DNA of 64,000 bases from Acutalibacteraceae bacterium (lineage in GTDB: Bacteria; Bacillota; Clostridia; Oscillospirales; Acutalibacteraceae), in NCBI GenBank assembly GCA_036308645.1, contig JAXJVH010000007.1, positions 1 through 64,000 on the forward strand. The letters are read 5' to 3'. How positions within the stretch are numbered: position 1 is the first letter of the stretch; every line of letters begins with the position of its first letter. Below the pieces are notes generated by a model. The model was given only the letters and a program-made list of their open reading frames with translations, was not told where the DNA came from and did not search any database. Below are positions 7,759 through 57,007 of this stretch, piece by piece. The position numbers and the translations under genes are program-made.

Positions 7759-7974
7759 TTAGCCTTTGATTTCGTTGATTTTGTCTACAACAGCGCCAAC
7801 GGTTGTAAGTGACTGATCCATTTCCATCTCGATGTCAAATTCATCTTCGATATTCATTACCAATTCAGCTACGTCGAGTGAATCAATACCGAGATCAGCG
7901 AATTTTGTATCGCGAGTAATGTCTTCTGCATCAACCTTTTCTTTTAAAAGCTCGATTACTTTTTCTTCTACCAT
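7759..7974 (-). CDS. acpP: Acyl carrier protein
   Basis: DLGIDSLD phosphopantetheine-attachment motif. Start MVEEK placed at 7974 with an AAGGAG RBS; the track ORF is N-terminally extended. Confidence 0.85.
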   Translation of the reverse strand: MVEEKVIELLKEKVDAEDITRDTKFADLGIDSLDVAELVMNIEDEFDIEMEMDQSLTTVGAVVDKINEIKG

Positions 7975-33800: not shown

Positions 33801-34564
33801 CGGGTTCACGAAGCACTTATGAGGTAACTGCTTTTGATGAAACAAATTCACAACAATCTGCCGGTTCAATTAATTTTGCCGATTTAAGCACTAAAGTAGG
33901 CAACAACACTTATTATTGTAATCCTACTTTAACAGAAAATGTTTTGGTTTCATCCGGTTCTACTTTAAAACTTAGATTTACCATTACTGCTGCCGGAACA
34001 AGTTCAGGCTCATATATTGACAAGTTCGTTCTGACAAAAGTTGCTGATTATATACCTGAAGAAACAGGCGATACAACAGACGCTCTTTCAACATCGGCAA
34101 CTGCTTCAATCAGACTTGGTACTGTTTGCGGTATCAGATTCTACACAACCTTTGATACATCGAAAATTGAAGGCACAATAGTAGAAAAAGGCACTCTTAT
34201 AGGACCTAAAGATAAAATCGGCAACTATCTTACAATTGAAGATACAGTAACCGAAGACGGGGCTTCGCCAAAAGCAGTCACAGTTAAGTATAAACCTGAT
34301 ACACTTTGGAAAAACAATGAATTTGTCGGTTCTCTTGTTGGTATTAAAGAAACTAACTACAACAGAGAATTTGTAGCCCGCGGTTATGTTAAATTAGAAG
34401 ACGGCACATATCTTTATTCGGCAACATCTACTGCAAAAACCGTTGCAGATATAGCAGCCGCATTTATTGAAAACGCAACAAAAGATGACGCAACAGAAAA
34501 AGATAAAGCCTTATATAACACTTATAAAGAACTGGTTGACAAATGGGCAGCCACTAAATCCTAA
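30851..34564 (+). CDS. Secreted multidomain carbohydrate esterase: signal peptide, SGNH/GDSL hydrolase, beta-sandwich (CBM/Ig-like) modules, Thr/Ser-rich linker and an Fn3-like domain
   Basis: 1237 aa. Signal peptide MKKQLSIILAIVMLFTVIGSMQIANA, GDS motif MVGDSITSGFGS, FGTNDG block, linker TSATSATTTTSTATTTKGTETSSSASSATDS. No dockerin or LPXTG seen. Confidence 0.7.
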   Translation: MKKQLSIILAIVMLFTVIGSMQIANAESEPIEILTVKDQIRTVGRTEEVDNGIACDWTASGIEFNAVCEENSSIALTINSNAECYFTVFIDDVRQDYRVRTLSGDYTPVFASAENGLESGKHKIKIIKQTERSNVKTTIKAISLNNVVLSDKPEEPEYIFEMVGDSITSGFGSLDTNNQEAKYSDGTRTYAYLTAQNFGAEARVVSQSGGFITSLYNQYIKNSRDDNAFDYSAYKKPNVVTLAFGTNDGSRTVEYWQTGIQNFADAIRTGYNDNSIPIVFIHNLISNDDKLRANVATAIKNLKAEDETKYSNIYVTSGNNPQGGHPGQQSHYKTSKKLTRDLVEFGLMPASALKDDATIILNESSQKEITVNNFDSNITAVDGITSELVSPLDPADNGVDGKYAVKFTADGTQTEVADKNTLHATFGTVANTNYKTKGISFYLKYHDTDYDSSDETSVYDIPRLYFVNGNGDSTAYDLYSVKLSDVKDNELTKVEIYWNEMPYSNYIFLRSFINCNSVKLCLDMHGECEYTIDNMQAILCDYTYSDNSNQAYTYTKGYSSYEVIGILDGYEAATTVTSATSATTTTSTATTTKGTETSSSASSATDSEYTKVLDFDTTLTEPVFGWQNGTDKSSVIDYTTVDETYADGNVAMLASSNNYNNVGFLLGDVFSGKKVKSISFEIWSTTAFNLDNRSGLRNGTNYADPEIDMRNLGYNDSKKFLITKEKQNLIFDFSNISVDVTAWTNPHVSFNLSKTTTLYIDNITVTYERYYADLDVEGNVERVYADENGYITLPDVAISTGDFAGWATDDDADNIIPANTSLNISKDTVFYAVSSNRLDQEAPAAPVVESVGATTVTLVANDSYQYSMDGTVWQNSNIFTGLDSATEYTFYQRYKATATHKSSPASEGLKVTTATVYNFEAEKTVGAYSGTLNSNSSNSDTSTGSLIYAVHDASNPAVGHYVEYKFTGITTGYYQVSLFSRNVSGSRSTYEVTAFDETNSQQSAGSINFADLSTKVGNNTYYCNPTLTENVLVSSGSTLKLRFTITAAGTSSGSYIDKFVLTKVADYIPEETGDTTDALSTSATASIRLGTVCGIRFYTTFDTSKIEGTIVEKGTLIGPKDKIGNYLTIEDTVTEDGASPKAVTVKYKPDTLWKNNEFVGSLVGIKETNYNREFVARGYVKLEDGTYLYSATSTAKTVADIAAAFIENATKDDATEKDKALYNTYKELVDKWAATKS

Positions 34565-35088: not shown

Positions 35089-36666
35089 ATGTCTTTTGAT
35101 GAAAAGATTTTAAACAACTGCGAAAAGGCGATTTTTTTACTTCGCAAGTTATTCAAAGATTACGGATATGAGCAGTACAAGGTCAGCAAATTTGAAGAAT
35201 ACGACCTTTATATGAAAAATAAAAGTTTTTTGGTTTCGGAAAATGTGCTGACTTTTACCGATACAAACGGTAAATTAATGGCATTAAAACCCGACGTAAC
35301 GCTTTCAATTATCAAAAACACCAAAGATGACGAATCGCTTAAAAAGGTGTATTATAACGAGGTTGTTTACCGACCGAACGACGAAAACGGTTTTCGTGAA
35401 ATCAACCAGACAGGTCTTGAATGTATCGGCGATATTGATACTTCCAACGTATGCGAAGTTATTACGCTTGCTATTAAAAGTTTGCAGCAGATAAGCGATA
35501 CATACCTGCTTAATATTTCGCATAACGGCTTTATTGCGGGACTTCTTTCGGAGGCAAACGCCGACGAGCAGACGAACGAGGCAATCTTAAAAGCGGTTTC
35601 ACAAAAAAACACAGCCGCAGTAACGGCAATCTGCAAAGATAAAAACATCAGCGAAAAGGTTGCAAATGCGCTTTGTGAACTCTGCCTTATTTATGAGCCA
35701 GTTTGCGAATGTCAGGAAAAATTAGAAAGCCTTATTATAAACGAGCAGATGCAGGCGGCTTTTTATGAAATATCAAAGATAAACTCTACATTGCAAAAGT
35801 CGGGTATGGCAGAGAGAGTAATGATGGATTTCTCTATTGAGAATGATATGAATTACTATAACGGCATTATTTTCAACGGTTTTGTTGGCGAATTGCCGCA
35901 AAGTGTTTTAGCCGGCGGAAGATATGATAATCTTGTTCATAAAATGGGCAAAAACAAAGGTGCAATCGGTTTTGCGGTTTATCTTGATTTGTTAGAGCGA
36001 ATTGATGAAAAAGCAAACGAAGAGGACGACGGCGAATTTATAAACGTTGCACTTCCGAAAGGCAGACTCGGTGAAAAAGCATACGATATTTTTGAAAAAT
36101 CAGGATATGAATGTCCTGCTATTTACGATAAGGGCAGAAAACTGATTTTTGAAAACTCGGATAAAAAAGTCCGCTACTTCTGGGTAAAGCCTTCCGATGT
36201 TGCAATTTATGTTGAAAAAGGTGCGGCAGATGTAGGCATTGTAGGCAAGGACATTTTACTTGAACAAAATTCCGATGTTTACGAAATGCTTGATTTAAAA
36301 CTCGGCAAATGCAGAATGGCGGTTGCCGCTAAAAAGGATTTTTGCGACAACCACGATAAAACGCTTGTTGTTGCAACCAAATTCCCGAATATTGCAAAGC
36401 AGTATTACAACTCAATAAGCCGACAAATTGATATAATCAAACTTAACGGCTCAATTGAGATTGCTCCCCTGCTCGGACTTTCAGATGTAATTGTCGATAT
36501 TGTTGAAACAGGTAAAACTCTGCTTGAAAACGACCTTGAACCGAAAGAAACAATTGTAAATATCAGCGCAAGGTTAATCTGCAACAAATCAAGCTACAAA
36601 TTTAAAAACCAAAGAATTAACGATCTTCGTAATAACATGGCACAAATTCTTGATAATGAGGAATAA
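35089..36666 (+). CDS. hisZG: Fused HisZ (regulatory subunit) and HisG (short-form ATP phosphoribosyltransferase)
   Basis: 525 aa. The N-terminal ~305 aa are a HisRS-like HisZ domain. The C-terminal ~210 aa are short HisG (ALPKGRL, GAADVGIVGKD, IKLNGSIEIAPLLGLSDVIVDIVETGKTL). There is no stop or Met at the junction (KANEEDDGEF-INVALPKGRL). Confidence 0.75.
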   Translation: MSFDEKILNNCEKAIFLLRKLFKDYGYEQYKVSKFEEYDLYMKNKSFLVSENVLTFTDTNGKLMALKPDVTLSIIKNTKDDESLKKVYYNEVVYRPNDENGFREINQTGLECIGDIDTSNVCEVITLAIKSLQQISDTYLLNISHNGFIAGLLSEANADEQTNEAILKAVSQKNTAAVTAICKDKNISEKVANALCELCLIYEPVCECQEKLESLIINEQMQAAFYEISKINSTLQKSGMAERVMMDFSIENDMNYYNGIIFNGFVGELPQSVLAGGRYDNLVHKMGKNKGAIGFAVYLDLLERIDEKANEEDDGEFINVALPKGRLGEKAYDIFEKSGYECPAIYDKGRKLIFENSDKKVRYFWVKPSDVAIYVEKGAADVGIVGKDILLEQNSDVYEMLDLKLGKCRMAVAAKKDFCDNHDKTLVVATKFPNIAKQYYNSISRQIDIIKLNGSIEIAPLLGLSDVIVDIVETGKTLLENDLEPKETIVNISARLICNKSSYKFKNQRINDLRNNMAQILDNEE

Positions 36667-43202: not shown

Positions 43203-43248
43203 TTTTTTAATTAAACCGTAACCGACTACAAAAATAACACACTAAAAA

Positions 43249-43278
43249 AGCCTCACAAAAATGTGAGACTTTTTTTGA
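43249..43278. terminator. Bidirectional intrinsic terminator between the convergent his and car/arg operons
   Basis: Stem CCTCACA / TGTGAGA with A-run upstream and TTTTTTT downstream. Confidence 0.6.
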
Positions 43279-43282
43279 TTTA

Positions 43283-46200
43283 TCAATATTTAAACGTACC
43301 CTCGTAAACCATAACGGCATTGCCTGTTAGCGTGATACCGTCGTCGGTATAATTTACGGTAAGGTCGCCGCCTTTCACCTTTACGGTGATGTCTTCGCCT
43401 TTGTTGCAAAATCCGTTTTCCACCGCTGCAACAACCGCTGCACAAGCACCTGTACCGCAAGCGAGCGTTTCGCCGTTTCCACGCTCATAAACACGCATTT
43501 TAATGGTGTTTTTATTAACCACCCTAATAAATTCGGTGTTGATTCTTTCGGGGAAAATCTCCGCATTTTCAAACTGAGGCCCTACAGCTTCAATATCAAT
43601 TCCGTCTACCCTGTCACAAAAGACTACGCAATGCGGATTGCCTACAGACAAACAGGTAATATTATAATCATTACCGCCGATTTTAACAGGATAATCAATT
43701 ACCTTGTCAATATCAAGCGTGCAAGGCAACGACTTTGCATAAAGGTCTGCCTTGCCCATTGAAACGCTGACGGTTGTAACCATACCGTCACGTGTATAAA
43801 CATCTAAATTCTTAATGTTTCCCGCCGCTTCTATTGTCATACGTTCTTTTTTGACAATTTCCTTATCATACAAAAACTTTGCAACGCAGCGAATGGCGTT
43901 TCCCGCCATTTTACCCTCCGAGCCGTCGATATTAAAAATTCTCATTTTAGCGTCGGCGATTTCGGATTTTTCAATAAGCACTATTCCGTCGCCGCCGATT
44001 CCGTAATGGCGGTCGCAAAGGCTTACGCACAGCGATTCTGGACAGGTGATACTGCCGTCAAAGTTATCAATAAAGATATAGTCGTCGCCCGTACCCTGCA
44101 TTTTAGAGAATTTATACTCACGCTTTTTATCACGCATTTTGTTAATATCGACAAGTTCGGTGTTCTGTCGGTTAAAACGGCTTGCAATAATATCAGCGAG
44201 CGCATTCGCCGTATCAAGCGAAGTAAAGCAGGCGACCCCGTGAATAAGCGCTTTTCTGTGAAGCGCAATATAATCGTCTAATGTTTCATCAAAAAGTGCG
44301 CCTGTGTAAACAATATAACTGATTTTTTCGCTCTCGATAAGCGGGAAAAAGTCATTTTTAGTTACTCGTGTAACGCTTATTCCAAGTTGTTCCACCGCGT
44401 CGGCGGTATCGCTTGTAGCGTATATTTTCATTTTAAGGTCGTCGAGTTTTTTAGCAAGCGACACGATTTCAAGCAAATCATGATTTTCAACGCTGATAAG
44501 CACGCCTACATCATCTGTAACCGACGGTGATTTTATCTTAAATCCTGCGGAAGTAAGACCTTTGAAAAGTCCTTCCGTCAATGTTTTACCTATGCCCAAA
44601 ACCTCGCCTGTTGATTTCATTTCAGGTCCGAGATACGAGTTGACGTCGGTTAATTTTTCAAATGAGAATACCGGCACTTTTACTGCGAAATACGGCGGAT
44701 GACGGTAAAGACCGCTGCCGTAACCCAAATCGCATAATTTTGCGCCTGTCATAACCTTTGTCGCAAGGTCGACCATAGGCACGCCCGTAACCTTGCTGAT
44801 ATAAGGAATTGTACGGGAAGCACGAGGATTTACCTCGATAATATAAAGTTCATTTTGATAAATAAGATACTGAATATTGACAAGTCCTTTAGTGCCTAAG
44901 GAAAGAGCTAATTTTTCAGAACTTTCTACGATTTTCTTTATCATTCTGTCGTCAATATTGTACGGCGGATAAACCGCAATAGAGTCGCCCGAATGAACGC
45001 CTGCACGTTCAATATGCTGCATTATTCCCGGGATTAAAACTTCTTCGCCGTCGGAAATAACGTCAACCTCAAGTTCCGAACCGCTCATATATTTATCAAC
45101 CAGCACAGGATTTTCAATGCCTGTAGATAAAATCCTTTCCATATAGCGGATTACCTGACGCTCATCATAAACAATGCACATATTCTGACCGCCGATAACG
45201 TAAGACGGGCGCAGAAGAACGGGATAACCCAAAGTTTCGGCGGCTTTTAAAGCCTCGGCGGTTGTCATAACGCCCATACCGCGCGGTCTTTTAAAACCGA
45301 ATGTTTCAAGCAGTTCGTCAAACTGCTCTCTGTCCTCTGCCTTATCAATACCCTCGGCAGATGTGCCGAGAATTTTTATTCCGTTTTCGTGCAAATATTT
45401 TGTGAGTTTAATAGCGGTCTGACCGCCGAAAGCAACCACAACGCCGACAGGCTTTTCAACCTTTATGATGTTCATAACGTCTTCTTTGCAAAGCGGTTCA
45501 AAATAAAGTCGATCCGCCGTATCATAGTCGGTTGAAACAGTTTCGGGATTGTTGTTCACAATAACAACGTCATAGCCTAACTCTTTTAAAGTCCAAACGC
45601 AGTGTACCGATGAATAGTCGAACTCAATACCCTGCCCTATGCGGATAGGTCCTGAACCCAAAACCATAATTACGGGTTTACCGCTTCGTTTAAATGAACG
45701 AGCCTCGCAAATTTCATCATAACTTGAATAAAAATACGGCGTTTTGGCGTCAAATTCAGCCGCGCAGGTATCAACGATTTTATAAACTGCGTCACGATGA
45801 AAATTAAATTTAAAGCCGCAAAGTTTTTTGAGCGATTCATCGGTATAACCGTATTTTTTGCCTTTAAGATAATTTTCTTCGGTTAAAGGTTTGTTCTCGA
45901 TTTCCTTTTCAAAATCGGCAAGATTTTTTAGTTTATACAAGAAGAAACGGTCGATTTTTGTAATTTCAAAAATCTCATCAACCGAAACGCCGTTTTTAAG
46001 TGCCTCAAAAACAGTAAAAATTCTACGGTCGTTTACATCCTGCAAACGCTCTTTCACGCTTCTGTCGTCAAGCGGCGGAGCATTAAGCGTATCGAAAGAG
46101 ATTTCAGCACCTCTTACCGCTTTCATAACGGCGGTTTCAAAATTATGCCCTATCGACATAACCTCGCCCGTAGCCTTCATTGCAGTACCGATTTTTCTCG

Positions 46201-47305
46201 TAGAGCCCGCAAACTTGTCAAACGGCCATTTTGGGAATTTTACTACAACATAATCGAGCGCAGGCTCAAAGCAAGCGCAGGTTTTACCTGTAATATCATT
46301 CTCGATTTCATCAAGAGTATATCCCAATGCAATCTTTGTAGTGATTTTTGCAATCGGGTATCCGGTTGCTTTTGAAGCGAGTGCAGAAGAACGTGAAACA
46401 CGCGGATTTACTTCGATTACCGCATACTCAAAACTATCGGGATTTAATGCAAACTGGCAGTTGCAACCGCCCTTAATATCAAGCGCCTGAATAATGTTGA
46501 TAGAGGCGCTTCGCAACATCTGATATTCTTTGTCGGCAAGCGTTAATGCAGGAGCGGTTACGATAGAATCGCCCGTATGCACGCCTACGGGGTCAAAGTT
46601 TTCCATTGAACAAATCGCAATGGTATTGCCGACGCCGTCACGCATTGTTTCAAACTCGATTTCTTTCCAGCCTGCAATATATTTTTCAACTAAAATCTGC
46701 GTAATCGGTGAAGAATCAAGTCCCGTTTTTGCAACGGTTTTCATTTCCTCTTCGTTATAAGCGACGCCGCCACCGCCACCGCCTAATGTAAAAGCAGGAC
46801 GTATAATTACAGGGTATCCTATCTTATTTGCCACTTCTAACGCAGTTTCAATATCATTAGCAATATCCGACGGAATACAAGGCTCTCCGATAGAATCCAT
46901 TGTCTGCTTAAATAAAAGCCTATCCTCCGCCTTGTCAATCGCCTCGGCGTTTGTACCGATTAAACGAACATTGTGTTTTTCCAAAAAGCCTTCCTTGTCA
47001 AGTTCCATAGCAATGGTAAGGCCTGTCTGTCCGCCAAGCCCTGCAAGAAGCGAATCAGGCTTTTCTTTTTCAATAATTCTTTTAATAGTTTCGCTTTCAA
47101 GCGGTTCAAGATAAATTTCATCGGCAAGTGCTTTATCGGTCATAATTGTCGCAGGATTTGAATTTACAAGCACAACATTTATACCTGCCTGTTTTAAAAC
47201 TCGGCAGGCTTGTGCGCCTGCATAGTCAAACTCCGCCGCCTGACCGATAACAATAGGGCCTGAACCGATAACCATTACTTTTTTAATCGACTTATCAAGC
47301 GGCAT
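43283..47305 (-). CDS. carB: Carbamoyl-phosphate synthase large subunit fused in frame to diaminopimelate epimerase (CarB-DapF)
   Basis: 1340 aa. Residues 1-1056 are full CarB (two ATP-grasp halves, oligomerisation and MGS-like domains). Residues ~1057-1340 are a complete DapF (KFSKMQGTGDDYIFID, GNPHCVVF, ACGTGACA). The junction Met codon at 44135-44137 has no upstream Shine-Dalgarno sequence. Confidence 0.8.
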   Translation of the reverse strand: MPLDKSIKKVMVIGSGPIVIGQAAEFDYAGAQACRVLKQAGINVVLVNSNPATIMTDKALADEIYLEPLESETIKRIIEKEKPDSLLAGLGGQTGLTIAMELDKEGFLEKHNVRLIGTNAEAIDKAEDRLLFKQTMDSIGEPCIPSDIANDIETALEVANKIGYPVIIRPAFTLGGGGGGVAYNEEEMKTVAKTGLDSSPITQILVEKYIAGWKEIEFETMRDGVGNTIAICSMENFDPVGVHTGDSIVTAPALTLADKEYQMLRSASINIIQALDIKGGCNCQFALNPDSFEYAVIEVNPRVSRSSALASKATGYPIAKITTKIALGYTLDEIENDITGKTCACFEPALDYVVVKFPKWPFDKFAGSTRKIGTAMKATGEVMSIGHNFETAVMKAVRGAEISFDTLNAPPLDDRSVKERLQDVNDRRIFTVFEALKNGVSVDEIFEITKIDRFFLYKLKNLADFEKEIENKPLTEENYLKGKKYGYTDESLKKLCGFKFNFHRDAVYKIVDTCAAEFDAKTPYFYSSYDEICEARSFKRSGKPVIMVLGSGPIRIGQGIEFDYSSVHCVWTLKELGYDVVIVNNNPETVSTDYDTADRLYFEPLCKEDVMNIIKVEKPVGVVVAFGGQTAIKLTKYLHENGIKILGTSAEGIDKAEDREQFDELLETFGFKRPRGMGVMTTAEALKAAETLGYPVLLRPSYVIGGQNMCIVYDERQVIRYMERILSTGIENPVLVDKYMSGSELEVDVISDGEEVLIPGIMQHIERAGVHSGDSIAVYPPYNIDDRMIKKIVESSEKLALSLGTKGLVNIQYLIYQNELYIIEVNPRASRTIPYISKVTGVPMVDLATKVMTGAKLCDLGYGSGLYRHPPYFAVKVPVFSFEKLTDVNSYLGPEMKSTGEVLGIGKTLTEGLFKGLTSAGFKIKSPSVTDDVGVLISVENHDLLEIVSLAKKLDDLKMKIYATSDTADAVEQLGISVTRVTKNDFFPLIESEKISYIVYTGALFDETLDDYIALHRKALIHGVACFTSLDTANALADIIASRFNRQNTELVDINKMRDKKREYKFSKMQGTGDDYIFIDNFDGSITCPESLCVSLCDRHYGIGGDGIVLIEKSEIADAKMRIFNIDGSEGKMAGNAIRCVAKFLYDKEIVKKERMTIEAAGNIKNLDVYTRDGMVTTVSVSMGKADLYAKSLPCTLDIDKVIDYPVKIGGNDYNITCLSVGNPHCVVFCDRVDGIDIEAVGPQFENAEIFPERINTEFIRVVNKNTIKMRVYERGNGETLACGTGACAAVVAAVENGFCNKGEDITVKVKGGDLTVNYTDDGITLTGNAVMVYEGTFKY

Positions 47306-48363
47306 TATCGGTCACCTCCCATTAAATCAATGAATCTGTCAAATAAAAATGCGCTGTCGTGCGGTCCTGAACAAGCCTCGGGGTGGAACTGCACCGAAAA
47401 AGCATTAAATTCGGGATAATCAACACCCTCAACGGTGTTGTCGTTTGCATTAACAAAACTAACCTTGCCGTTTTTAAGATTATCACCGACTACTGCATAT
47501 CCGTGATTTTGACTGGTAATAAAAGTTCTCTTTCCGAATACTTCCTTTACAGGCTGATTAGCTCCCCTGTGACCGTATTTAAGTTTAACGGTTTTAGCGC
47601 CGTTGGCAAGCGCCAAAAGTTGATGACCGAGACAAATACCGAAAAGCGGAACTTTGCCGAAAAGTTTTTTAATCACATTAATTTGTTCTGTATTCTCGGC
47701 AGGGTCGCCCGGTCCGTTTGAAAGCATTACGCCGTCGGGATTTTCCGCTAAAATCTGCTCGGCAGTATAAGTGCAAGGTACAACTTTAACCGTACAACCA
47801 CGCTTGTTAAGTTCACGAATAATATTACGTTTTGCGCCGTAATCAATCAATGTAACCTTATATTTTTCATCATCCGCCGATACGGTATACTCCTTTTCGG
47901 TGGAAACGCTTTTTACCGCGGCGCATATCTTATAATCTATAATATCGTTAAGGTCGCTCGGTATTTCGCTGCATATAGCGGCATTCATTACGCCGTATTC
48001 ACGAATTGTTTTTGTTATCTCTCTTGTATCAACGCCGTAAATACCCGGAATACCGTGGCTTTTTAAAAACTCGTCAACGCTCTGTTCACATCTGAAATTA
48101 GACGGATTTTCGCACCATTCTCTTACAACGTAGCCTTTAACAGAGGGATTGCCCTCAAAATCATCACTGCATACGCCGTAGTTTCCTATCATCGGGAATG
48201 TCTGCAATACAATCTGACCGTAGTAACTTTCGTCGGTAAGCGTTTCAACATAACCGCAAACGCCTGTTGTGAAACAAAGTTCACCTATAGCGCCGTTTTC
48301 AGCGCCGAAACCGTACCCTGAAAAAACCTGACCGTTTTGTAAAACTAAATATGCTTTTCTCAT
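47305..48363 (-). CDS. carA: Carbamoyl-phosphate synthase small subunit
   Basis: 352 aa with a GATase domain (GICLGHQ); overlaps the carB start as ATGA. Confidence 0.9.
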   Translation of the reverse strand: MRKAYLVLQNGQVFSGYGFGAENGAIGELCFTTGVCGYVETLTDESYYGQIVLQTFPMIGNYGVCSDDFEGNPSVKGYVVREWCENPSNFRCEQSVDEFLKSHGIPGIYGVDTREITKTIREYGVMNAAICSEIPSDLNDIIDYKICAAVKSVSTEKEYTVSADDEKYKVTLIDYGAKRNIIRELNKRGCTVKVVPCTYTAEQILAENPDGVMLSNGPGDPAENTEQINVIKKLFGKVPLFGICLGHQLLALANGAKTVKLKYGHRGANQPVKEVFGKRTFITSQNHGYAVVGDNLKNGKVSFVNANDNTVEGVDYPEFNAFSVQFHPEACSGPHDSAFLFDRFIDLMGGDR

Positions 48364-48367
48364 AAAA

Positions 48368-49363
48368 TTAGTCCTTGTATCCTAAAGTTGCCGCCATTAC
48401 GGCTTTTATAGTGTGCATTCTGTTTTCTGCCTCTTGGAAAACGATTGACTGCTCCGACTCAAACACTTCGTCGGTAACTTCCATACACTCACGACCGAAA
48501 CGCTCGCCCATTTCTTTGCCTACCTCGGTTTTAAGGTCGTGATAAGCAGGAAGGCAGTGCATAAACACGGCTTTATCGCCTGCGTTATCCATTAACGCTT
48601 TATTAACCTGATATGGGGAAAGTTCATTTATTCTTTCTTCCCAAACCTCTACAGGCTCGCCCATTGAAACCCAAACGTCGGTATAAATTACATCCGCGTT
48701 TTTTGTGGCTTTCATCGGGTCTGTTTCAAATTTAATCACAGCGCCTGTTTCTTTTGCTATGCTTTCACATTCGGCAATTAAAACCTTATTTGGAAAATAT
48801 TTTTCAGGAGCGCAAGCGGTAAAATTAAGACCCATTTTAGCGCAACCAACCATAAGCGAATTGCCCATATTGTATCTTGCGTCGCCCATATAAACAAAAT
48901 TTATGCCTTTTAAATAACCGAAATGCTCTTTTATAGTTAAAAAGTCGGCAAGAATTTGAGTTGGGTGAAATTCATTTGTAAGACCGTTCCAAACGGGTAC
49001 GCCGGCAAAAGCCGCCAACTCCTCAACAATTTCCTGACCGAAACCTCTGTATTCTATTCCGTCAAACATTCTGCCCAATACCCTTGCGGTATCGGCAATA
49101 GATTCTTTTTTTCCAATTTGTGAGCCCTGCGGGTCAAGATAAGTAACGCCCATACCAAGGTCACGAGCCGCCACCTCAAAAGCACAGCGAGTTCTCGTAG
49201 AAGTTTTTTCAAAAATAAGCGCAATATTTTTACCTTTTAATTTGTCGTGAGCAATACCGTTTTTCTTTTTAGCCTTAAAATCTGCCGCAAGGTCAATAAG
49301 ATGTTCTGTTTCTTCGCTTGTAAAATCAAGCAATTTTAAAAAGTTTCTGTTTTTTAAGTCCAT
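48368..49363 (-). CDS. argF: Ornithine carbamoyltransferase
   Basis: 331 aa with STRTR carbamoyl-phosphate motif and HCLP. Confidence 0.8.
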
Positions 49364-49375
49364 TATTCTTTCTCC

Positions 49376-50536
49376 TTATTCGCAAGCCTTTTTAATAACT
49401 TCAACCGCTTTTTTCAATGTTTCAAACGGAATATTAAGCGCAGGCAAAAGTCTGATTTTAGTCTTTGCTTTAAGCACGCTGACGCCGTTTTCAAGGCAGA
49501 TTTTAAGTATATCGCCTGCGTCTTTTTCGGTTTCAATGCCAATCATAAGTCCCATACCGCTGACAGACTTTATTCCATTTGCGCCGTTTAATTCATTAAA
49601 TATATAGTCGGATTTTTCCTTAACCTCGCCTAAAAGTTTATCGTCAATTCTTGATAAAACATTTACAGCCGCCGCACAGCATATCGGATTTCCGCCGAAA
49701 GTTGAGCCGTGCGAACCCGGAGTAAACACATCTTTACATTTATCAAAAAGCATTGTCGCACCTATCGGCAAGCCGCCTGCAAGACCTTTTGCGGTTGATA
49801 CTATATCGGGGCGGACGCCGTAATTCATATAACCGTAAAGTTTTCCTGTTCTGCCGTTGCCTGTCTGTACCTCGTCAACTATCATCAAAATATCGTTTTT
49901 CTCGGCGATTTCGTTAATTTTATCAACAAATTCTTGATTAAGCGGTAAAACACCGCCCTCGCCCTGCACGGTTTCAAACATTATCGCAATAACATTGTTC
50001 TCTTTTACGGCTCGCTCCAAATCAGCGCAGTCGTTGGCCTTTGCGTGAACAAATCCGCCTGTAAGCGGTAAAAAGTCATTATGAAAAACGTCCTGACCGG
50101 TTGCCGCTAAAGTTGTGATTGTTCTGCCGTGGAACGAATTTTCGAGCGTTAAGATAACGCCGTCCTTTATTCCTTTATTTTCAGCGTATTTTCTTGCAGC
50201 TTTTATCGCACATTCGTTAGCCTCTGCTCCCGAATTGCCGAAAAAGACCTTTTTAGCGCCTGTTTTTTCACAAAGCATTTTTGCAAGCGTTACGCAAGGC
50301 TCTGCGTAGTAAAGATTTGAAGTATGCTGAAATGCGTCTAACTGCTTAATTACGGCGTCTTTCCAACTTTCATCACAAAAGCCGAAAGTATTTACGGCAA
50401 TTCCCGTACCCATATCTATATACTCTTTGCCGTTTTCATCATAGAAAATACTGCCTTTTCCGCTGACAATATTAATATCAAAACGGGCATAAGTATCGGC
50501 AATATATTTTTTGTCGTCCGATTTAACGCTCATCAA
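49376..50536 (-). CDS. argD: Acetylornithine aminotransferase
   Basis: 386 aa class III aminotransferase. Confidence 0.8.
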   Translation of the reverse strand: MMSVKSDDKKYIADTYARFDINIVSGKGSIFYDENGKEYIDMGTGIAVNTFGFCDESWKDAVIKQLDAFQHTSNLYYAEPCVTLAKMLCEKTGAKKVFFGNSGAEANECAIKAARKYAENKGIKDGVILTLENSFHGRTITTLAATGQDVFHNDFLPLTGGFVHAKANDCADLERAVKENNVIAIMFETVQGEGGVLPLNQEFVDKINEIAEKNDILMIVDEVQTGNGRTGKLYGYMNYGVRPDIVSTAKGLAGGLPIGATMLFDKCKDVFTPGSHGSTFGGNPICCAAAVNVLSRIDDKLLGEVKEKSDYIFNELNGANGIKSVSGMGLMIGIETEKDAGDILKICLENGVSVLKAKTKIRLLPALNIPFETLKKAVEVIKKACE

Positions 50537-51396
50537 TATTTCTCCTTAACTACCATTGTGCCTACGCCCTCGTCGGTAAGCATATCAAGTAAAACCGCAT
50601 GCGGTACTCTGCCGTCCATAATAGTAACTTTGTCAACGCCTCTGTCGATTGCGTCGATACAACATTCAACCTTTGGAATCATACCGCCTGAAATGATTTC
50701 CTGATTAAACAGTTCCTTTGCCTGTTTTATATCAACAAGCGGAATCAATGAATCGGGATTATCCTTATCGTGTAAAATTCCCGCAATATCGGTCATTAAA
50801 ATAAATTTATCCGCACTCATTGCACCTGCAATATATGCCGCCGCAGTATCTGCATTGATATTGTAAACATTGCCCTCGTTATCGCAACCGAGCGTTGAAA
50901 CAACGGGGATATATCCTTTTTCAAGCAAATCAATAATCGGGTTGACATTAACCTCGGTAATTCTTCCGACATATCCTAAGCGTTCGTCTTTTATTTCAGC
51001 CTTTATCATCTGACCGTCGATACCGCAGATACCCATAGCCTTTCCGCCTTTGGTTTCAAGCAGATTAACAAGACCTTTGTTAATTTTTCCTGCCAGTACC
51101 ATCTGCACAATTTCGGTCGATTCCTTATCGGTAACACGAAGTCCGTCTACAAACTCTGATTTTTTACCTACCCTATTAAGCATATCGGTAATTTCAGGGC
51201 CGCCGCCGTGAACTAAAACAACCTTTACACCGATTAATGAAAGAAGAACAATATCCTCCATTACCCGTTGTTTTAAATCATCGTTAATCATAGCGTTTCC
51301 GCCGTATTTTATTACAACGATTTTTCCGTTGTATTTTTTTATGTAAGGCAAAGCCTCAACAAGTATATGCGCCCTTTGCGCATTAGATATGTCCAT
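50533..51396 (-). CDS. argB: Acetylglutamate kinase
   Basis: 287 aa amino-acid kinase family (VIKYGGNAM). Confidence 0.9.
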   Translation of the reverse strand: MDISNAQRAHILVEALPYIKKYNGKIVVIKYGGNAMINDDLKQRVMEDIVLLSLIGVKVVLVHGGGPEITDMLNRVGKKSEFVDGLRVTDKESTEIVQMVLAGKINKGLVNLLETKGGKAMGICGIDGQMIKAEIKDERLGYVGRITEVNVNPIIDLLEKGYIPVVSTLGCDNEGNVYNINADTAAAYIAGAMSADKFILMTDIAGILHDKDNPDSLIPLVDIKQAKELFNQEIISGGMIPKVECCIDAIDRGVDKVTIMDGRVPHAVLLDMLTDEGVGTMVVKEKY

Positions 51397-51413
51397 AGTA
51401 CTTATCCTCCGCT

Positions 51414-51872
51414 TTAAAATAACTTTATACTGTAATCGTTATTTTCGTAATTTTTTTCATAAGCCATTTCGCTTAAACTATCATCATCGAAAACTTTAAA
51501 AAGTTCATCAAAATCTTTTGCTAAATTATATTTTTTTAAATCGAATTTATTAATCCACTTCATTCTACCCTCATCAGAAGAATGAAGATTTCCTCTAAAT
51601 TCATTAGTTTTATATAACAAAACAATATATCGGCTAAAATCTTGATTTTCAAATTGCTTTATTCCACATAGTTTAGGATTTTTGATATAAAGTCCTGTTT
51701 CTTCGTAAATCTCACGAACAACAGCATCGTTAAATGATTCGCCTTTTTCAACATGTCCACCGGGAAAAGCAACCCCCGGCCAATCAGCATCATTTCTATC
51801 CTGTACTAAAATCATATTGCCATCATAAATCATACACATAGTTGTAAATTCAGCAAGTATTTTTCTATTCAT
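51414..51872 (-). CDS. NUDIX hydrolase embedded in the arg operon
   Basis: 152 aa with Nudix box GGHVEKGESFNDAVVREIYEETGL. Confidence 0.7.
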   Translation of the reverse strand: MNRKILAEFTTMCMIYDGNMILVQDRNDADWPGVAFPGGHVEKGESFNDAVVREIYEETGLYIKNPKLCGIKQFENQDFSRYIVLLYKTNEFRGNLHSSDEGRMKWINKFDLKKYNLAKDFDELFKVFDDDSLSEMAYEKNYENNDYSIKLF

Positions 51873-51907
51873 TATACATTTACTCCTAAAAGCTTCAATG
51901 AATACCA

Positions 51908-51935
51908 GCCTCCCTTGCCTAAAGGGAGGCTTTTT
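51908..51935 (+). other. Hairpin GCCTCCCTT-GCCTA-AAGGGAGGC with a U-tract only on the plus strand (antisense to the operon)
   Basis: Seen directly in the sequence; lies between argJ and the NUDIX gene. Confidence 0.4.
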
Positions 51936-51951
51936 AGGATTTTAGCCTGAT

Positions 51952-53163
51952 TTAAGTTCTGTAATCGCCGTTGATTTTTACATAATCATAAGTTAAATCA
52001 CAGCCCCAAGCGGTCGCTCTTGTTTCGCCGTCGTTAAGGTTAATTAAAATTCCGATTTCTTTTTGGAGTAAAATCTCTTTCGCCTTTTCCTCGGAAAAAT
52101 CAACGCCTGCGCCGTTTTTGCAAACCTCGATTTCGCCTTTTGACGAGCAGAAAGAAACATCAATTTTTTCTACGTCCACATCAGCGCCCGAGTAACCGAT
52201 AGCGCAAAGTACTCTGCCCCAGTTAGCGTCTGCGCCGAACATCGCCGCTTTAAGCAGCGACGAACAAATAACGGATTTTGCAACTTTTTTGGCGGTTATT
52301 TCATCTTTTGCGCCCGAAACATCACATTCAAGCAACTTTGTAGCGCCCTCGCCGTCGCCCGCAATCATTCTGCAAAGCGCAACGGTAACGGTATTAAGCG
52401 CTTTCATAAACTCATTAAAATCAGCGCCCTCGCAGTCAATCATATCGTTTCCCGCCATACCGTTTGCAAGCACCGAAACCATATCGTTTGTCGAGGTATC
52501 GCCGTCGATAGAAACCATATTAAAAGTTGATTTTACATCGGTAGAAAGCGCCTTTTGAAGCATTTTTGAAGATATAGCGCAGTCGGTTGTAATAAACACA
52601 AGCATAGTAGCCATATTCGGGTGAATCATACCGCTGCCCTTTGCAATTCCGCCCATTCTGCATACTTTTTTGCCGATTGTAAATTCAACCGCCACTTCTT
52701 TTTTAACGGTATCGGTGGTCATAATAGCTTCGGCGGCGTCCGCACTTTTTTCGCCGAGTCCGTTTACCAATTCGTCCATACCGTTTTTAATAGGCTCTAT
52801 ACACAGCGGTTGACCGATAACGCCGGTAGACGCAACTATTACATCCATAGAAGAAATATTTAATTTTTCCTCTACCAATTCGCTCATCTGCTCTGCAATA
52901 TCAATTCCGTTTGCATTACAGGTATTTGCGTTTCCGCTGTTGCAGATAATAGCCGAAGCCATACCGTCCTTTATATGAGTTTTTGTAACCGCAATCGGAG
53001 CGCCTTTTACTAAATTTGTAGTATAAACGCAAGCCGCCGCCGCCCGACAATCCGAAACAATAAGCGCTAAATCTTTTTTTGTTTTGTTTTTTCTGATTCC
53101 GCAATGTACGCCGTTTGCCCGAAAGCCTTTTGCCGCAACTACACCGCCGTTAATAAAATTCAT
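51952..53163 (-). CDS. argJ: Bifunctional ornithine acetyltransferase / N-acetylglutamate synthase
   Basis: 403 aa with the autoproteolytic ATML/T site (MATMLVFITTD). Confidence 0.9.
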   Translation of the reverse strand: MNFINGGVVAAKGFRANGVHCGIRKNKTKKDLALIVSDCRAAAACVYTTNLVKGAPIAVTKTHIKDGMASAIICNSGNANTCNANGIDIAEQMSELVEEKLNISSMDVIVASTGVIGQPLCIEPIKNGMDELVNGLGEKSADAAEAIMTTDTVKKEVAVEFTIGKKVCRMGGIAKGSGMIHPNMATMLVFITTDCAISSKMLQKALSTDVKSTFNMVSIDGDTSTNDMVSVLANGMAGNDMIDCEGADFNEFMKALNTVTVALCRMIAGDGEGATKLLECDVSGAKDEITAKKVAKSVICSSLLKAAMFGADANWGRVLCAIGYSGADVDVEKIDVSFCSSKGEIEVCKNGAGVDFSEEKAKEILLQKEIGILINLNDGETRATAWGCDLTYDYVKINGDYRT

Positions 53164-53189
53164 AAAATTATAGTCCTTTCAAAATCTTT

Positions 53190-54122
53190 TTATAAATCAA
53201 GTCCTGTTTCTTTTTCTACGCCGAGTTTTATATTCATACATTCGACCGCCGCTCCCGAAGCGCCTTTTCCGAGATTGTTAAATCTTGAGAGTAACAGTAT
53301 TCTTTCATCGTTACCCGCTACGGTAATTTCCATATTATCTTTATCGTCAATGGCGCTTGCGCTGATAAAACCGTCTTCATCAATGCTGTCAAAATATTTT
53401 ACTATTTTGCCGTTGTAAAGCGAGCGGTAAACCTCTTTAATATCCTTTACGGAAAATCCGCTTTTAATTTGTGAAGCAAAAAGCGGAACGGTAACTGTCA
53501 TACCGCTGTAAAAATTGCAAACATAAGGGCAAAAAATCGGCTCATTTTTAAGTCCCGAAATAATTTTCATTTCAGGAATATGCTTATGATTTTGAGTAAG
53601 CGCATACTCACGAGGACCTGTAAGCAACGGGTCAAGTTCCATATCCTCATACTGTGCAATCCCCTTTTTTCCTGCGCCCGAATAACCCGAAACCGCATGG
53701 CAGGTTATCTGTGCATTGCCGTCAATTATACCGTTTTTTACAAGAGGTTCAACAAGTGAAATAAATCCGCTTGCATAACAACCGGGGTTTGCTATTCGGT
53801 TGGAGTTTTTGATTTTCAATTCAAATTCCTCGCCTAGTTCAGGAAAACCATAAGCCCAATCGGGATTTGTTCTGTGAGCGGTAGACGCGTCAATTACCGT
53901 AACATTCGGATTTTCGATAAACGAAACCGCCTCGACTGCCGCCGCGTCAGGCAAACACAAAAAAGCAATATCGCAACTGTTCAGCGCTTCTTTTCTGTAT
54001 TCGGGAATTTTACGCTTATCATCGGAAAGAGTCATAACCTCAATATCTTTCCTGTTTTTTAAGCGTTCAATTATGCGAAGTCCTGTTGTTCCGGCGCTGC
54101 CGTCAATAAAAATCTTTTTCAT
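53190..54122 (-). CDS. argC: N-acetyl-gamma-glutamyl-phosphate reductase
   Basis: 310 aa with active-site Cys context NPGCYASG. Confidence 0.8.
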   Translation of the reverse strand: MKKIFIDGSAGTTGLRIIERLKNRKDIEVMTLSDDKRKIPEYRKEALNSCDIAFLCLPDAAAVEAVSFIENPNVTVIDASTAHRTNPDWAYGFPELGEEFELKIKNSNRIANPGCYASGFISLVEPLVKNGIIDGNAQITCHAVSGYSGAGKKGIAQYEDMELDPLLTGPREYALTQNHKHIPEMKIISGLKNEPIFCPYVCNFYSGMTVTVPLFASQIKSGFSVKDIKEVYRSLYNGKIVKYFDSIDEDGFISASAIDDKDNMEITVAGNDERILLLSRFNNLGKGASGAAVECMNIKLGVEKETGLDL

Positions 54123-54124
54123 AA

Positions 54125-55498
54125 TTATCCAATAAAGTCCTTAATAAATTTAATTTGAGTTTCAACCGACTTCGGTCCTGTGCCGCCTGCGGAAGTACGC
54201 TTGTTTACACAGGTTTCAAGGCTGATTTCATCATATAAATCATCTTCAAAAACATCTGAAAACTGCTTGTATTCTTCCATAGAAACGGCGTCAAGCACCT
54301 TGTTATTCTGAATACAGTAGGCTACAATCTGACCGACGATTTTATAGGCGCTTCTGAAAGGTAAACCTTTTTTTGCAAGATAATCCGCAAGGTCGGTTGC
54401 ATTGATAAATCCGCCCTGCGCCGCACTATACATTTTATCGGTTTTTACATTCATTGTAGCAATCATCGGAGCAAAATTTTTAAGGCATTTTTTAACCGTT
54501 TCAATACTGTCAAAAATAGCCTCTTTATCCTCTTGCATATCCTTGTTATAAGCAAGCGGAAGTCCTTTAAGAGTTGTAAGCAAAGCCATCAAATCGCCGT
54601 AAACTCTGCCTGTTTTACCTCTGACAAGTTCGGCAATATCGCTGTTTTTCTTCTGTGGCATTATGCTAGAACCCGTTGTGTAAGCGTCGTCAAGTTCAAC
54701 AAATGAAAACTCTAAAGACGACCAAAGAATTATCTCTTCGGAAAAACGGGATAAGTGCATCATAACAACTGCGAAAGCCGACATAAGTTCAACGCAGAAA
54801 TCTCTGTCCGAAACGCCGTCAAGCGAGTTTAAAGTAATACCGTCAAAGCCTAATTTTTCCGCTTCAAAATATCGGTCGGTATTAAAAGTTGTTCCTGCCA
54901 ACGCACAACAACCTATAGGCGATAAATTCATTCGTTTTACGGCGTCCTTAATACGGGTAATATCCCTTGTAAACATCATAGCGTACGCCAAAAGATGATG
55001 CGCAAAAGTAATAGGCTGCGCTCTTTGTAAGTGAGTATAGCCCGGCATAATTACCAACTTGTTAGCCTCGGCTTTTTCAACTATTGCCGTAAGCAGATTT
55101 TTAATTAAATCAATAATTTCTCCCGACTCGTCACGCAGATACATTCTTATATCGAGAGCCACCTGGTCATTTCTGCTTCTTGCGGTGTGAAGTTTTTTTC
55201 CTACATCGCCGACGCGCTTTGTAAGTTCCGCCTCAACGAACATGTGAATATCTTCGGCGTCCATATCAAACTGCAATTTTCCGTTGTTAAGATCGTCAAG
55301 AATACCGCCGAGTCCCTCGACAAGAGTTTCCATTTCCTCAACCGAAATAATGCCCTGCTTTGCTAACATCTGCGCATGAGCAATAGAGCCTGTAATATCC
55401 TGTTTATACATTTTGCAATCAAAATGTATTGAAGAGTTAAAGTCGTCTGCTTCTTTATCGAGCGCTTTTTGAAAACGCCCTGCCCACATTTTATCCAT
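54125..55498 (-). CDS. argH: Argininosuccinate lyase
   Basis: 457 aa fumarase/ASL family. Confidence 0.9.
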   Translation of the reverse strand: MDKMWAGRFQKALDKEADDFNSSIHFDCKMYKQDITGSIAHAQMLAKQGIISVEEMETLVEGLGGILDDLNNGKLQFDMDAEDIHMFVEAELTKRVGDVGKKLHTARSRNDQVALDIRMYLRDESGEIIDLIKNLLTAIVEKAEANKLVIMPGYTHLQRAQPITFAHHLLAYAMMFTRDITRIKDAVKRMNLSPIGCCALAGTTFNTDRYFEAEKLGFDGITLNSLDGVSDRDFCVELMSAFAVVMMHLSRFSEEIILWSSLEFSFVELDDAYTTGSSIMPQKKNSDIAELVRGKTGRVYGDLMALLTTLKGLPLAYNKDMQEDKEAIFDSIETVKKCLKNFAPMIATMNVKTDKMYSAAQGGFINATDLADYLAKKGLPFRSAYKIVGQIVAYCIQNNKVLDAVSMEEYKQFSDVFEDDLYDEISLETCVNKRTSAGGTGPKSVETQIKFIKDFIG

Positions 55499-55557
55499 AA
55501 TACAAGTTTAGTCTGTAGGCAAAAATGCCCACAGACTTTTACCTTTCATTTTAAATT

Positions 55558-56787
55558 TTATTTAAGATTGTTCTTTGCTTTCATTTTAGCAATAACCTTT
55601 GTCGGCAAGCCGTAAAGATTAATAAAGCCTGCTGAATCTTTTTGGTCGTAAACTTCATCTTCATCAAAAGTTGCGATTTCAGGGTCATAAAGTGAATAAG
55701 GTGAAGTAACGCCCGCATTAATCATATTGCCTTTATAAAGTTTAAGTTTAACATCGCCTGTAACGGTTTCCTGTGTTTTCTTAACAAATGCTAAAATTGC
55801 TTCGGTTAAAGGAGTGTACCATTGAGCGTTATAAACGAGTTCGCCGAGTTTTTGAGCAACGAGCGCTTTATAATGTGAAGTTTCTTTATCAAGAGTGATT
55901 GTTTCAAGAATTTGATGCGCCTGATAAAGAATAGCGCCGCCGGGAGTTTCGTAAACGCCGCGGCATTTCATACCTACAAGACGGTTTTCAACAATATCAA
56001 GAAGTCCGATACCGTTTGCGCCGCCTAATTTGTTAAGAGTATCAACAACCTCTACAGCGCCCATCTCTTTACCGTCGATAGCGGTACAAATACCTTTTTC
56101 AAAGTGCAATGTAACATAAGTAGGTTTATCGGGAGCCTGCTCGGGAGAAACGCCCATTTCAAGGAATCCCTCTTTATCATACATAGGCTCGTTAGCCGGA
56201 TCTTCAAGGTCAAGACCTTCGTGCGATAAGTGCCAAATATTTTTATCTTTAGAATAATTTGTTTCTCTTGTGATTTTAAGCGGAACATTATGAGCCTCGG
56301 CATAATCAATTTCCTCATCACGGGATTTAATATCCCATTCACGCCAAGGAGCAATAATCGGCATATCAGGTGCAAATGCTTTAATTGCAAGTTCAAAACG
56401 AACCTGGTCGTTACCCTTACCTGTGCAACCGTGACAGATAGCGTCGGCGCCCTCTGCAATTGCGATTTCGGCAATTCTCTTACCGATTGCAGGACGTGCA
56501 AAAGCAGTACCTAAAAGATAGTCCTCATATTTAGCGCCTGCCTGAACACAAGGGAAAACGCAATCTGTTAAAAATTCCTCGGTTAAATCTTCAACATAAA
56601 GTTTAGAAGCGCCTGTTTTCAAAGCCTTTTCTTCAAGACCTTCAAGTTCGGAAGCCTGACCTACATTTCCCGAAACTGCGATAACCTCGCAGTTGTTGTA
56701 ATTTTCTTTAAGCCAGGGAATGATGATTGAAGTATCAAGACCGCCCGAATAAGCAAGCACTACTTTTTTAATATTCTTTTTATCCAT
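55558..56787 (-). CDS. argG: Argininosuccinate synthase
   Basis: Start [20 protein letters not shown] at 56787 with a GGAGG RBS; the track ORF is N-terminally extended to 56832. Confidence 0.9.
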
Positions 56788-56840
56788 TTTTATTTCCTCC
56801 GAAATTCTAAATAATTTAATATTCACTTTCAATGTGTATA

Positions 56841-56869
56841 ATTATACACACATATACATACTTTGTCAA
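56841..56869 (-). promoter_or_regulatory. Perfect-consensus sigma-70 promoter for the arg operon (TTGACA-17-TATAAT); the -10 lies inside an 18-bp perfect palindrome TGTGTATAATTATACACA
   Basis: On the minus strand, -35 is at 56864-56869 and -10 at 56841-56846. The palindrome spans 56835-56852. Confidence 0.55.
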
Positions 56870-56981
56870 CATATTTTTGAATATTTTTTGACTGAATTTT
56901 CATTATTTTATATTTTTAATAAAAGAATAGCGGCATTTTTACTTTTATTTATCACTTTCAACCTATTTTATGCATAAAATT

Positions 56982-57007
56982 ATGAATATTTATGCATAAA
57001 TATTCAT
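56982..57007. promoter_or_regulatory. 26-bp perfect palindrome ATGAATATTTATGCATAAATATTCAT containing two overlapping ARG-box-like sites (TGAATATTTATGCA)
   Basis: Close match to the AhrC/ArgR consensus TGAATwwwwATGCA/ATTCA. Lies between argG and the divergent LysR gene; a third TGCATAAAATTATGAATA lies just upstream. Confidence 0.45.

Follow-up and report, generated by a model that had tools for sequence, protein, structure and literature searches.

The element described here is a gene of an Acutalibacteraceae bacterium in which CarB, the large subunit of carbamoyl-phosphate synthase (CPSase), is joined in frame to a domain derived from the diaminopimelate (DAP) epimerase DapF. It lies in a stretch of 64,000 nucleotides, hereafter called the window (assembly GCA_036308645.1, contig JAXJVH010000007.1, positions 1 to 64,000), and the positions of its parts and neighbors are collected in Table 1. 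In the open reading frame (ORF) listing and its translation, the gene appears as one minus-strand ORF of 1340 residues with an ATG start and no stop codon inside. An earlier note on this DNA had proposed an in-frame CarB-DapF fusion, and this is confirmed by the undivided ORF together with its Pfam and NCBIfam matches. The same note took both partners to be complete, which holds for CarB but not for DapF, since the catalytic Cys73 of the epimerase is replaced by an alanine (Ala1134).

The CarB portion comprises two ATP-grasp halves, an oligomerisation domain and an MGS-like allosteric domain. Over the whole protein, Pfam detects two copies each of CPSase_L_D1 and CPSase_L_D2, one CPSase_L_D3, one MGS domain (residues 946-1028) and two DAP_epimerase (PF01678) domains. 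The NCBIfam equivalog models for CarB give 1430 bits against a cut-off of 599 (NF003671, residues 1-1043) and 1397.6 bits against a cut-off of 1027 (TIGR01369). A search of the PDB with a short query made of the MGS domain and the junction found no match; a longer query aligned E. coli CarB, and the CarB part of the fusion is alignable to residues 716-1050 of the 1073 of that protein. AlphaFold2 (AF2) models the MGS-like domain with high confidence as alternating strands and helices. By its domain set, its equivalog scores and the adjacent carA gene, this portion is a CarB, and the same full domain set is present in E. coli CarB (1bxr, 1jdb) and in the unfused CarB of a related locus with the order argC-argJ-argB-argD-carA-carB (L088). 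CarBs of the latter type share the C-terminal tail and the arg-operon position with the window protein, but they end 1-3 residues past the 'MR' of the tail, whereas the window protein adds 284.

The added region is recognised by the NCBIfam DapF model TIGR00652 over residues 1065-1338 (276.4 bits, cut-off 114.65), and its top matches in the PDB are the DapFs 2otn (2e-65) and 9mro. The model for bifunctional DapF/glutamate racemases (NF038284) reaches 107.4 bits, below its cut-off of 350. In AF2 the domain takes the two-lobed DapF fold, with a predicted local distance difference test (pLDDT) value of about 90; for the last 411 residues modelled together, the mean pLDDT is 88.6 and the predicted template modelling score (pTM) 0.73, with values near 70 in the linker.

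Spread of the fusion and its junction

To follow the distribution of the fusion, one genome for each GTDB species was scanned with an alignment that runs across the junction, and the locus counts given here refer to the best 80 loci. An in-frame match to MGS plus DapF was found in 78 of the 80, and 71 of these loci hold intact full-length ORFs in a single frame, of about 1340-1430 residues. Carriers are found in Oscillospiraceae, Ruminococcus, Christensenellaceae and Acutalibacter, and also in one Gracilibacteraceae metagenome-assembled genome (MAG) and six Treponema MAGs; cultured carriers are Ruminococcus sp. FC2018, Neglectibacter caecimuris, Ruminococcaceae bacterium AM07-15 and Oscillospiraceae bacterium CM74B_53B. 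Of 70 related loci, 62 have carA ahead of the fusion. The window protein itself is identical to NCBI entry MEE1002393.1 (a MAG of an Acutalibacteraceae bacterium), whose cluster at 90% identity has 20 members of 1340-1341 residues from separate ENA and Logan assemblies. The suspicion of an assembly error is answered by these independent assemblies, which yield the same 1340-residue protein, and the many fused examples in related genomes do not bear out a strain-specific mutation. The fusion is old, widespread and vertically inherited, and it is not an error.

The earlier note had no knowledge of such a combination. All full-length examples looked up carry the plain name 'carbamoyl-phosphate synthase large subunit' in their entries, so that the databases do hold the fusion, unremarked, under the CarB name; no description of a CarB-DapF fusion was found in the open-access literature. 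Word-index protein searches listed only proteins of up to 870 residues, while members of 1340 residues are present in the same collection, a bias to fragments. That fusions might exist only as fragments or broken genes was rejected by the genome scan and by exact look-up of intact full-length genes. Some copies are interrupted. In one, an in-frame TAG stands where a Lys codon is conserved (L001, 7941-7943); another has an internal stop (L036) and a third two frameshifts, at about 7450 and 7770 (L002); L003 (about 7920-7930) and L005 (about 6634-6664) have frameshifts near residue 680, and their downstream fragment (P0036) is encoded by 17 contigs, the frameshift being seen in the two loci checked. 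The copy in L081 is also interrupted. These broken copies could be sequencing errors or real pseudogenisation. Within the 90% cluster of the window, the CarB part differs by 0-5 residues and the DapF part by 8-12; six conservative changes at 43586-43711 (residues 1199-1240) occur as a block common to the two most distant members, and this block looks like a recombination mosaic.

The junction (FNRQNTELVDINKMRDKKREY) is built from the natural tail of CarB, kept as '...NTELVDINxMR' in 71 of 71 fusions, and from there only about six residues lead to the first DapF strand, whose 'LxFxKM' pattern in the fusions is that of the N-termini of stand-alone DapFs. Unfused CarBs of related clostridia stop right at the tail, with endings such as '...NTELVDINHMRH' and '...INRMRR' and the general form '...INxMR[RHK]', each followed directly by the stop codon. 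Because unfused relatives end exactly there, Met1057 (codon 44135-44137) is a CarB residue of the conserved C-terminal tail and not the would-be DapF initiator for which it had been taken. The observation that no Shine-Dalgarno sequence precedes it was correct: no match was found upstream of either Met1057 or Met1069, against a match of at least 4 nt for 48 of the 56 genes in the window. Separate production of DapF from an internal start was rejected on both grounds.

Cysteine loss and selection in the fused domain

The window domain was aligned residue by residue to solved DapFs (2otn, 9mro and 3ejx), and residues are given in H. influenzae numbering. Ala1134 aligns with the catalytic cysteine of all three, which stands at the N-terminal end of the central helix in lobe 1; here the window reads 'SEGKMAGNAIRC', B. 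anthracis 'SEGKSCGNGLRC' and the cyanobacterial and plant proteins 'SEPEMCGNGIRC'. The second catalytic cysteine, Cys217, is retained as Cys1283, and so are N64, G74, N75, N157, N190, E208, R209, G218 and T219; the substrate-contacting Asn11 is changed to Asp1074 and 'GNG' to 'GNA'. Stand-alone DapFs (H. influenzae 2gke/1bwz, B. anthracis 2otn, Anabaena 9mro) share with the window domain the two-lobed fold, Cys217 and the other contacts. The window domain is unlike them in the Cys73 to Ala and Asn11 to Asp replacements, in its attachment to CarB, in lacking a start and Shine-Dalgarno sequence of its own, and in having no neighbor of the DAP pathway.

Single alanine mutants of either DapF cysteine are reported to be inactive as epimerases. 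In the enzyme, a thiol/thiolate pair flanks the alpha-carbon on its two faces, and water is driven out as the domains close (PMC12039745); in E. coli DapF, a C73A/C217A double mutant has undetectable activity (PMC6061791). Since the Cys73 thiol is absent and the mechanism needs both thiols, the window domain is not a catalytically complete DapF, and from the established mechanism it should be unable to run the two-cysteine proton relay that defines this enzyme. It is accordingly classed as DapF-derived and not as DapF: its hidden Markov model score and its fold are those of the epimerase, while Cys73 and the genomic context of a DapF are lacking.

The loss is not peculiar to the window. Position 73 is Cys in 21 of the 71 full-length fusions, Ala in 35, Gly in 10, Ser in 3, and Thr and Phe in one each. 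Cysteine-less fusions also occur in isolate genomes, for example the one that encodes WP_022288784.1. Asn11 is present in all 21 Cys-type fusions, and Asp replaces it in nine close relatives of the window. The second cysteine is kept in 49 of the 50 fusions without Cys73, and across these C217 and the nine contact residues that the window retains (N64 to T219, listed above) are nearly invariant. A neighbor-joining (NJ) tree based on the CarB parts places the window in a clade of 37 species (clade I), all of them without Cys73, a pattern that implies one old loss in this clade; a second clade is mostly Cys-type with scattered further losses. On the premise that no lost cysteine is regained, the fusions without Cys73 fall into nine maximal clades, and unconstrained parsimony needs 5-6 changes. 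Stand-alone enzymes were compared by an exhaustive HMMER search over 1.84 billion cluster representatives, where Cys73 is kept in 119 of 125 DapF representatives of stand-alone length and apparent stand-alone Ala cases are fragments of fusions, such as P0169, which starts 'MDINALR...'. As Cys73 is lost in most fusions and kept in nearly all stand-alone DapFs, loss of the thiol is tolerated specifically when the domain is fused, and it recurs only in fusions.

The Treponema fusions (L067, L070, L077, L079, L080 and L082, from gut and termite MAGs) form a tight cysteine-less clade, mostly with Ala, nested among Clostridia, which suggests acquisition by horizontal transfer. A Selenomonadaceae locus (L031) also carries the fusion, and unfused Spirochaetia CarBs (P0322, P0337, P0349) are nested in a clade other than that of the window.

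The cysteine-less domain is under strong purifying selection. Between the window and a locus 94% identical to it (L086), the ratio of non-synonymous to synonymous substitution rates (dN/dS) comes to 0.043 in CarB and to 0.073 in the DapF part, the latter with 26 non-synonymous and 72 synonymous differences. Eight other pairs without Cys73 have DapF-part values of 0.07-0.21, 1.2-3.2 times those of their CarB parts, and the Cys-type pairs values of 0.045-0.14, 1.3-1.9 times CarB. With dN/dS well below 1, decay of the DapF part was rejected. Pocket and junction are invariant across the 37 species of clade I at 55-70% identity, and at residue 1334, which corresponds to the dimerisation Tyr268 of E. 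coli DapF, the window protein has a Tyr and the family as a whole Tyr or Phe.

Clade I has, in addition, specifically conserved residues of its own, N1081, G1084, T1087, C1088, S1091 and E1112, most of them in a short patch next to the junction that appears to lie on the outer face of the DapF N-lobe. In E. coli DapF, residues 19-22, 54-58 and 89 on the outer face of the N-domain serve to bind RppH (PMC6061791), and residues 19-22 are the homologues of the patch. Cys1088 (ITCPES) is confined to cysteine-less clade I and missing from the other eight cysteine-less lineages. Its role as a relocated catalytic cysteine is unlikely, given that the correlation goes back to one shared ancestor and that topology puts the residue on the outer surface.

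Unfused CarBs that end at the junction are nested both within the cysteine-less clade and within the other clade, with quartet bootstraps of 498-500/500 (P0324, L078 / window or L032, L049; P0322, L010 / L032, L049; P0362, L022 / L023, L049). In L088, such an unfused carB takes the corresponding place in the arg operon and is not followed by a dapF. These genes reflect either repeated deletion of the module or paralogy.

Origin and genomic surroundings

The fusions of Ruminococcus sp. FC2018 (WP_081777235.1), Neglectibacter caecimuris (WP_322181277.1) and strain AM07-15 (RHO51991.1), all of Cys type, have the same architecture, junction motif and upstream carA as the window, with an identity of 60-66% in CarB and 50-60% in the DapF part. 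Unlike the window, they read 'KMCGNGIRC' with Cys73, keep Asn11 and lack the Cys1088 patch, and in many Cys-type fusions dapL is the next gene downstream, or another dapF lies nearby together with dapL. dapL encodes LL-diaminopimelate aminotransferase, which makes the compound that DapF acts on. In Ruminococcus-like Cys-type fusions this gene (TIGR03542, 491-551 bits against a cut-off of 364.7) follows 20-180 nt downstream on the same strand; no dapL was found within 10 kb of the cysteine-less clade I fusions. Because both cysteines are kept and dapL is immediately downstream, these Cys-type proteins are probably true bifunctional CPSase/DAP epimerases. In L062, L063 and L081 (Neglectibacter, Acutalibacter) a second, canonical stand-alone dapF stands beside the fusion with dapL further on, so the fused copy is not needed there as an epimerase; the fused copy of L081 has lost both cysteines.

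A stand-alone dapF-dapL pair is present in L083, and in a paper on Clostridium thermocellum the diaminopimelate epimerase gene Cthe_3100 adjoins Cthe_3101, listed as a class I/II aminotransferase; this may be another instance of the pairing. The origin of the family would most likely be a single fusion event in a carA-carB-dapF-dapL cluster, where loss of the carB stop codon would have joined an intact CarB tail to the N-terminus of DapF with about six residues between them. Genes downstream of the fusion vary by lineage, as seen in L063 (11267-12124 and 12140-13753), L051, L056 and L072 among others; pyrG (CTP synthase) is found in several loci, and a NifS/IscS-type cysteine desulfurase in L045, L060 and others.

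In the window, the fusion is the last gene of a tight minus-strand operon, argG-argH-argC-argJ-nudix-argB-argD-argF-carA-carB::dapF, and its stop codon is directly followed by a terminator-like hairpin, past which lies a convergent histidine operon. The true start of argG is the ATG at 56787. Upstream of it a perfect sigma-70-like promoter was found, and 5 of the 17 ARG-box-like matches in the window fall within 200 bp there, including the palindrome TGAATATTTATGCATAAATATTCA. The earlier note's placement of the gene at the end of an arg operon thus stands, and its guess of arginine-responsive control is supported by the promoter and the ARG-box-like cluster. About a third of clade I loci, the window among them, have the fusion at the end of an arg operon, whereas Cys-type loci mostly do not. 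In a member of the window's own 90% cluster (P0161; L087, 8620-14026), carA alone is directly upstream, with unrelated genes ahead of it, and a convergent his operon is downstream; even between close relatives, then, linkage to the arg operon is variable or of recent date. The 64-kb window was found to hold neither a second dapF nor a dapL nor any further DAP/lysine gene.

Table 1. Features of the carB::dapF locus and its operon (positions in the window)
Feature	Position	Strand	Details
carB::dapF fusion ORF	43283..47305	-	1340 aa; stop codon 43283-43285
CarB portion, residues 1-1056 (end about 1058)	44138..47305	-	NF003671, TIGR01369
MGS-like allosteric domain, residues 946-1028	44222..44470	-	Pfam PF02142
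Junction, residues 1044-1064	44114..44176	-	natural CarB tail plus about six linker residues
DapF-derived domain, residues 1065-1340	43286..44113	-	TIGR00652; PDB matches; AF2
Asp1074 codon, position of substrate-contacting Asn11	44084..44086	-	GTGDDY vs GxGNDF
Clade-specific patch N1081...S1091	44033..44065	-	NFDGSITCPES, including Cys1088; adjoins fusion junction
Ala1134 codon (GCG), position of catalytic Cys73	43904..43906	-	alignments to solved DapFs
Cys1283 codon (TGC), second catalytic Cys (Cys217)	43457..43459	-	within ACGTGACA; retained
carA (CPSase small subunit)	47305..48363	-	442.9 bits vs cut-off 221; stop overlaps carB start
argF, argD, argB, NUDIX, argJ, argC, argH, argG	48368..56787	-	
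Promoter-like region upstream of argG	56812..57006	-	TTGACA-17-TATAAT at 56869-56841; five ARG-box-like matches
Intrinsic terminator-like hairpin and T-run	43244..43275	-	directly 3' of fusion stop codon

Between argJ and argB lies a MutT/NudG-like NUDIX gene (51414-51872, minus strand), preceded by a strong hairpin (51931-51907). A functional link of this gene to DapF, after the example of RppH, was judged a coincidence: the gene is MutT/NudG-like, and the insertion is present in none of the arg operons of relatives. A second NUDIX gene of the window is at 26090-26611. At the head of the his operon (35089-36666, plus strand), a 525-residue ORF holds in frame a HisZ-like part (tRNA-synt_His) and HisG (ATP phosphoribosyltransferase), proteins that are usually separate. 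The window also encodes a protein of 1237 residues (30851-34564, plus strand) that matches only CE2_N and a GDSL esterase at its N-terminus, with about 900 residues free of any match, and a 290-residue protein with a prokaryotic RING-finger (Prok-RING_1) domain (25160-26032, minus strand).

Function of the fused domain

In kind, the family is an enzyme fusion with a probable pseudoenzyme domain, one already in the databases without comment. We give a probability of about 0.55 to the reading that the DapF-derived part of the window protein is a pseudoenzyme domain that does not epimerise, binds a ligand and serves as an accessory module of CPSase. What marks it as a pseudoenzyme is the C73A loss combined with a fold and binding-site residues held under purifying selection. 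The module may still bind DAP or a close analogue, and it could work on the allosteric domain of CPSase either through ligand-dependent regulation or through dimerisation of the DapF type. The fused domain is probably not the diaminopimelate epimerase of the cell. That this DapF works for lysine and peptidoglycan synthesis while controlled by arginine is doubtful for this organism, where Cys73 is absent, and plausible only for Cys-retaining relatives with dapL. A more specific version of the pseudoenzyme reading, put forward tentatively, would make the domain a DAP sensor grafted onto the CPSase allosteric domain, coupling the supply of arginine and pyrimidine precursors to the pools of cell-wall and lysine precursors.

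Known systems offer partial parallels. In the eukaryotic CAD protein, the CPSase large chain is also extended C-terminally by another enzyme, and the partners (ATCase, DHOase) belong to the same pathway; the window fusion differs in that DapF comes from an unrelated pathway and is catalytically impaired. A precedent for the DapF fold as a protein partner exists in E. coli, where DapF activates the NUDIX hydrolase RppH non-catalytically (PMC4227774, PMC6061791) and uses for it the same N-domain face that carries the patch of the window domain. E. coli DapF, unlike the window domain, is a fully active epimerase and a separate polypeptide; E. coli with dapF deleted shows normal growth (GapMind 2026 preprint).

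Several points weigh against the pseudoenzyme reading. The observation that fits least well is the strict retention of Cys1283, for which residual or altered chemistry is no worse an explanation than pure ligand binding; a His/Glu pair that presumably assists this cysteine is strictly retained too. The unfused CarBs nested in the cysteine-less clade imply that the module is dispensable in some lineages, which weakens the case for an important regulatory role. The position of the patch at the CarB interface is deduced from fold topology, and the single-origin scenario from NJ trees and quartet bootstraps. Finally, the search for another dapF covered the 64-kb window, and the organism might depend on the fused domain as its epimerase.

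The view of the earlier note, a fully bifunctional protein whose domain is the working epimerase of the organism, expressed together with the arginine genes, is unlikely; the missing thiol would have to be replaced by water or by a residue such as Cys1088. In favor of this view, the TIGR00652 score lies well over the cut-off, Cys1283 and the other pocket residues are intact, purifying selection is strong, and no second dapF occurs within the window. The replacements at position 73 are mostly small (Ala 35, Gly 10, Ser 3) and leave space for water, but water is what domain closure expels in a mechanism that needs both thiols (PMC12039745), and substitution of Cys73 is almost never tolerated in stand-alone DapFs. 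Cys1088 is unique to cysteine-less clade I, but it would cap the outer helix at the far end of strand 2, a surface position, and it is absent from the other eight lineages that lack Cys73. No dapL lies near any clade I fusion, and in the window Asn11 is changed too.

Quite improbable is a neofunctionalised one-base enzyme, in which Cys1283 alone would carry out a beta-elimination, an isomerisation or a stereospecific protonation of a DAP-like substrate. Natural one-base derivatives of two-cysteine racemase folds exist in arylmalonate decarboxylase (Gly/Cys) and trans-3-hydroxyproline dehydratase (Thr/Cys), which, like the window domain, have one cysteine replaced by a small residue and keep the fold and the other cysteine. 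In DapF itself, single-Cys mutants still eliminate HF from 3-fluoro-DAP. Lanthionine is accepted by DapF (PMC12039745), and the strict retention of Cys1283, the His of GNPHC and Glu1274 across old cysteine-less lineages, together with the low dN/dS, is what such an enzyme would predict. Those derivatives belong, however, to other superfamilies or branches and have known new substrates, and none is indicated here: the pocket residues are unchanged and give no sign of a new substrate, the neighborhood offers no candidate substrate or pathway partner, the downstream genes being variable and mutually unrelated, and the module is deleted in several nested lineages. A decaying relic, or a stop codon lost in this assembly, has next to no probability: the repeated loss of the catalytic cysteine, the loss of the whole domain in nested lineages and the stops or frameshifts of L001, L002, L003, L005, L036 and L081 would suit it, but dN/dS of 0.07-0.21 is not near 1, pocket and junction are invariant across 37 species, and there are 71 intact ORFs in different species plus 20 independent near-identical copies.

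For annotation, these results carry a warning: as the proteins score as DapF 'equivalogs', pathway-reconstruction tools will assign a DAP epimerase to these gut Clostridia, many of which probably have none in this gene, while the deposited CarB name hides the extra domain. The allostery of CPSase is textbook knowledge, and the two-cysteine mechanism of DapF, a target for antibiotics, has been well studied. The active, cysteine-less and secondarily unfused forms make up a natural series on how a fused domain loses its catalysis, is kept and is sometimes discarded. If the sensor reading is true, the family would document a path from bifunctional enzyme to pseudoenzyme regulator and on to domain loss, and a DAP-responsive regulator would represent an undescribed mode of CPSase regulation and a new metabolic cross-talk.

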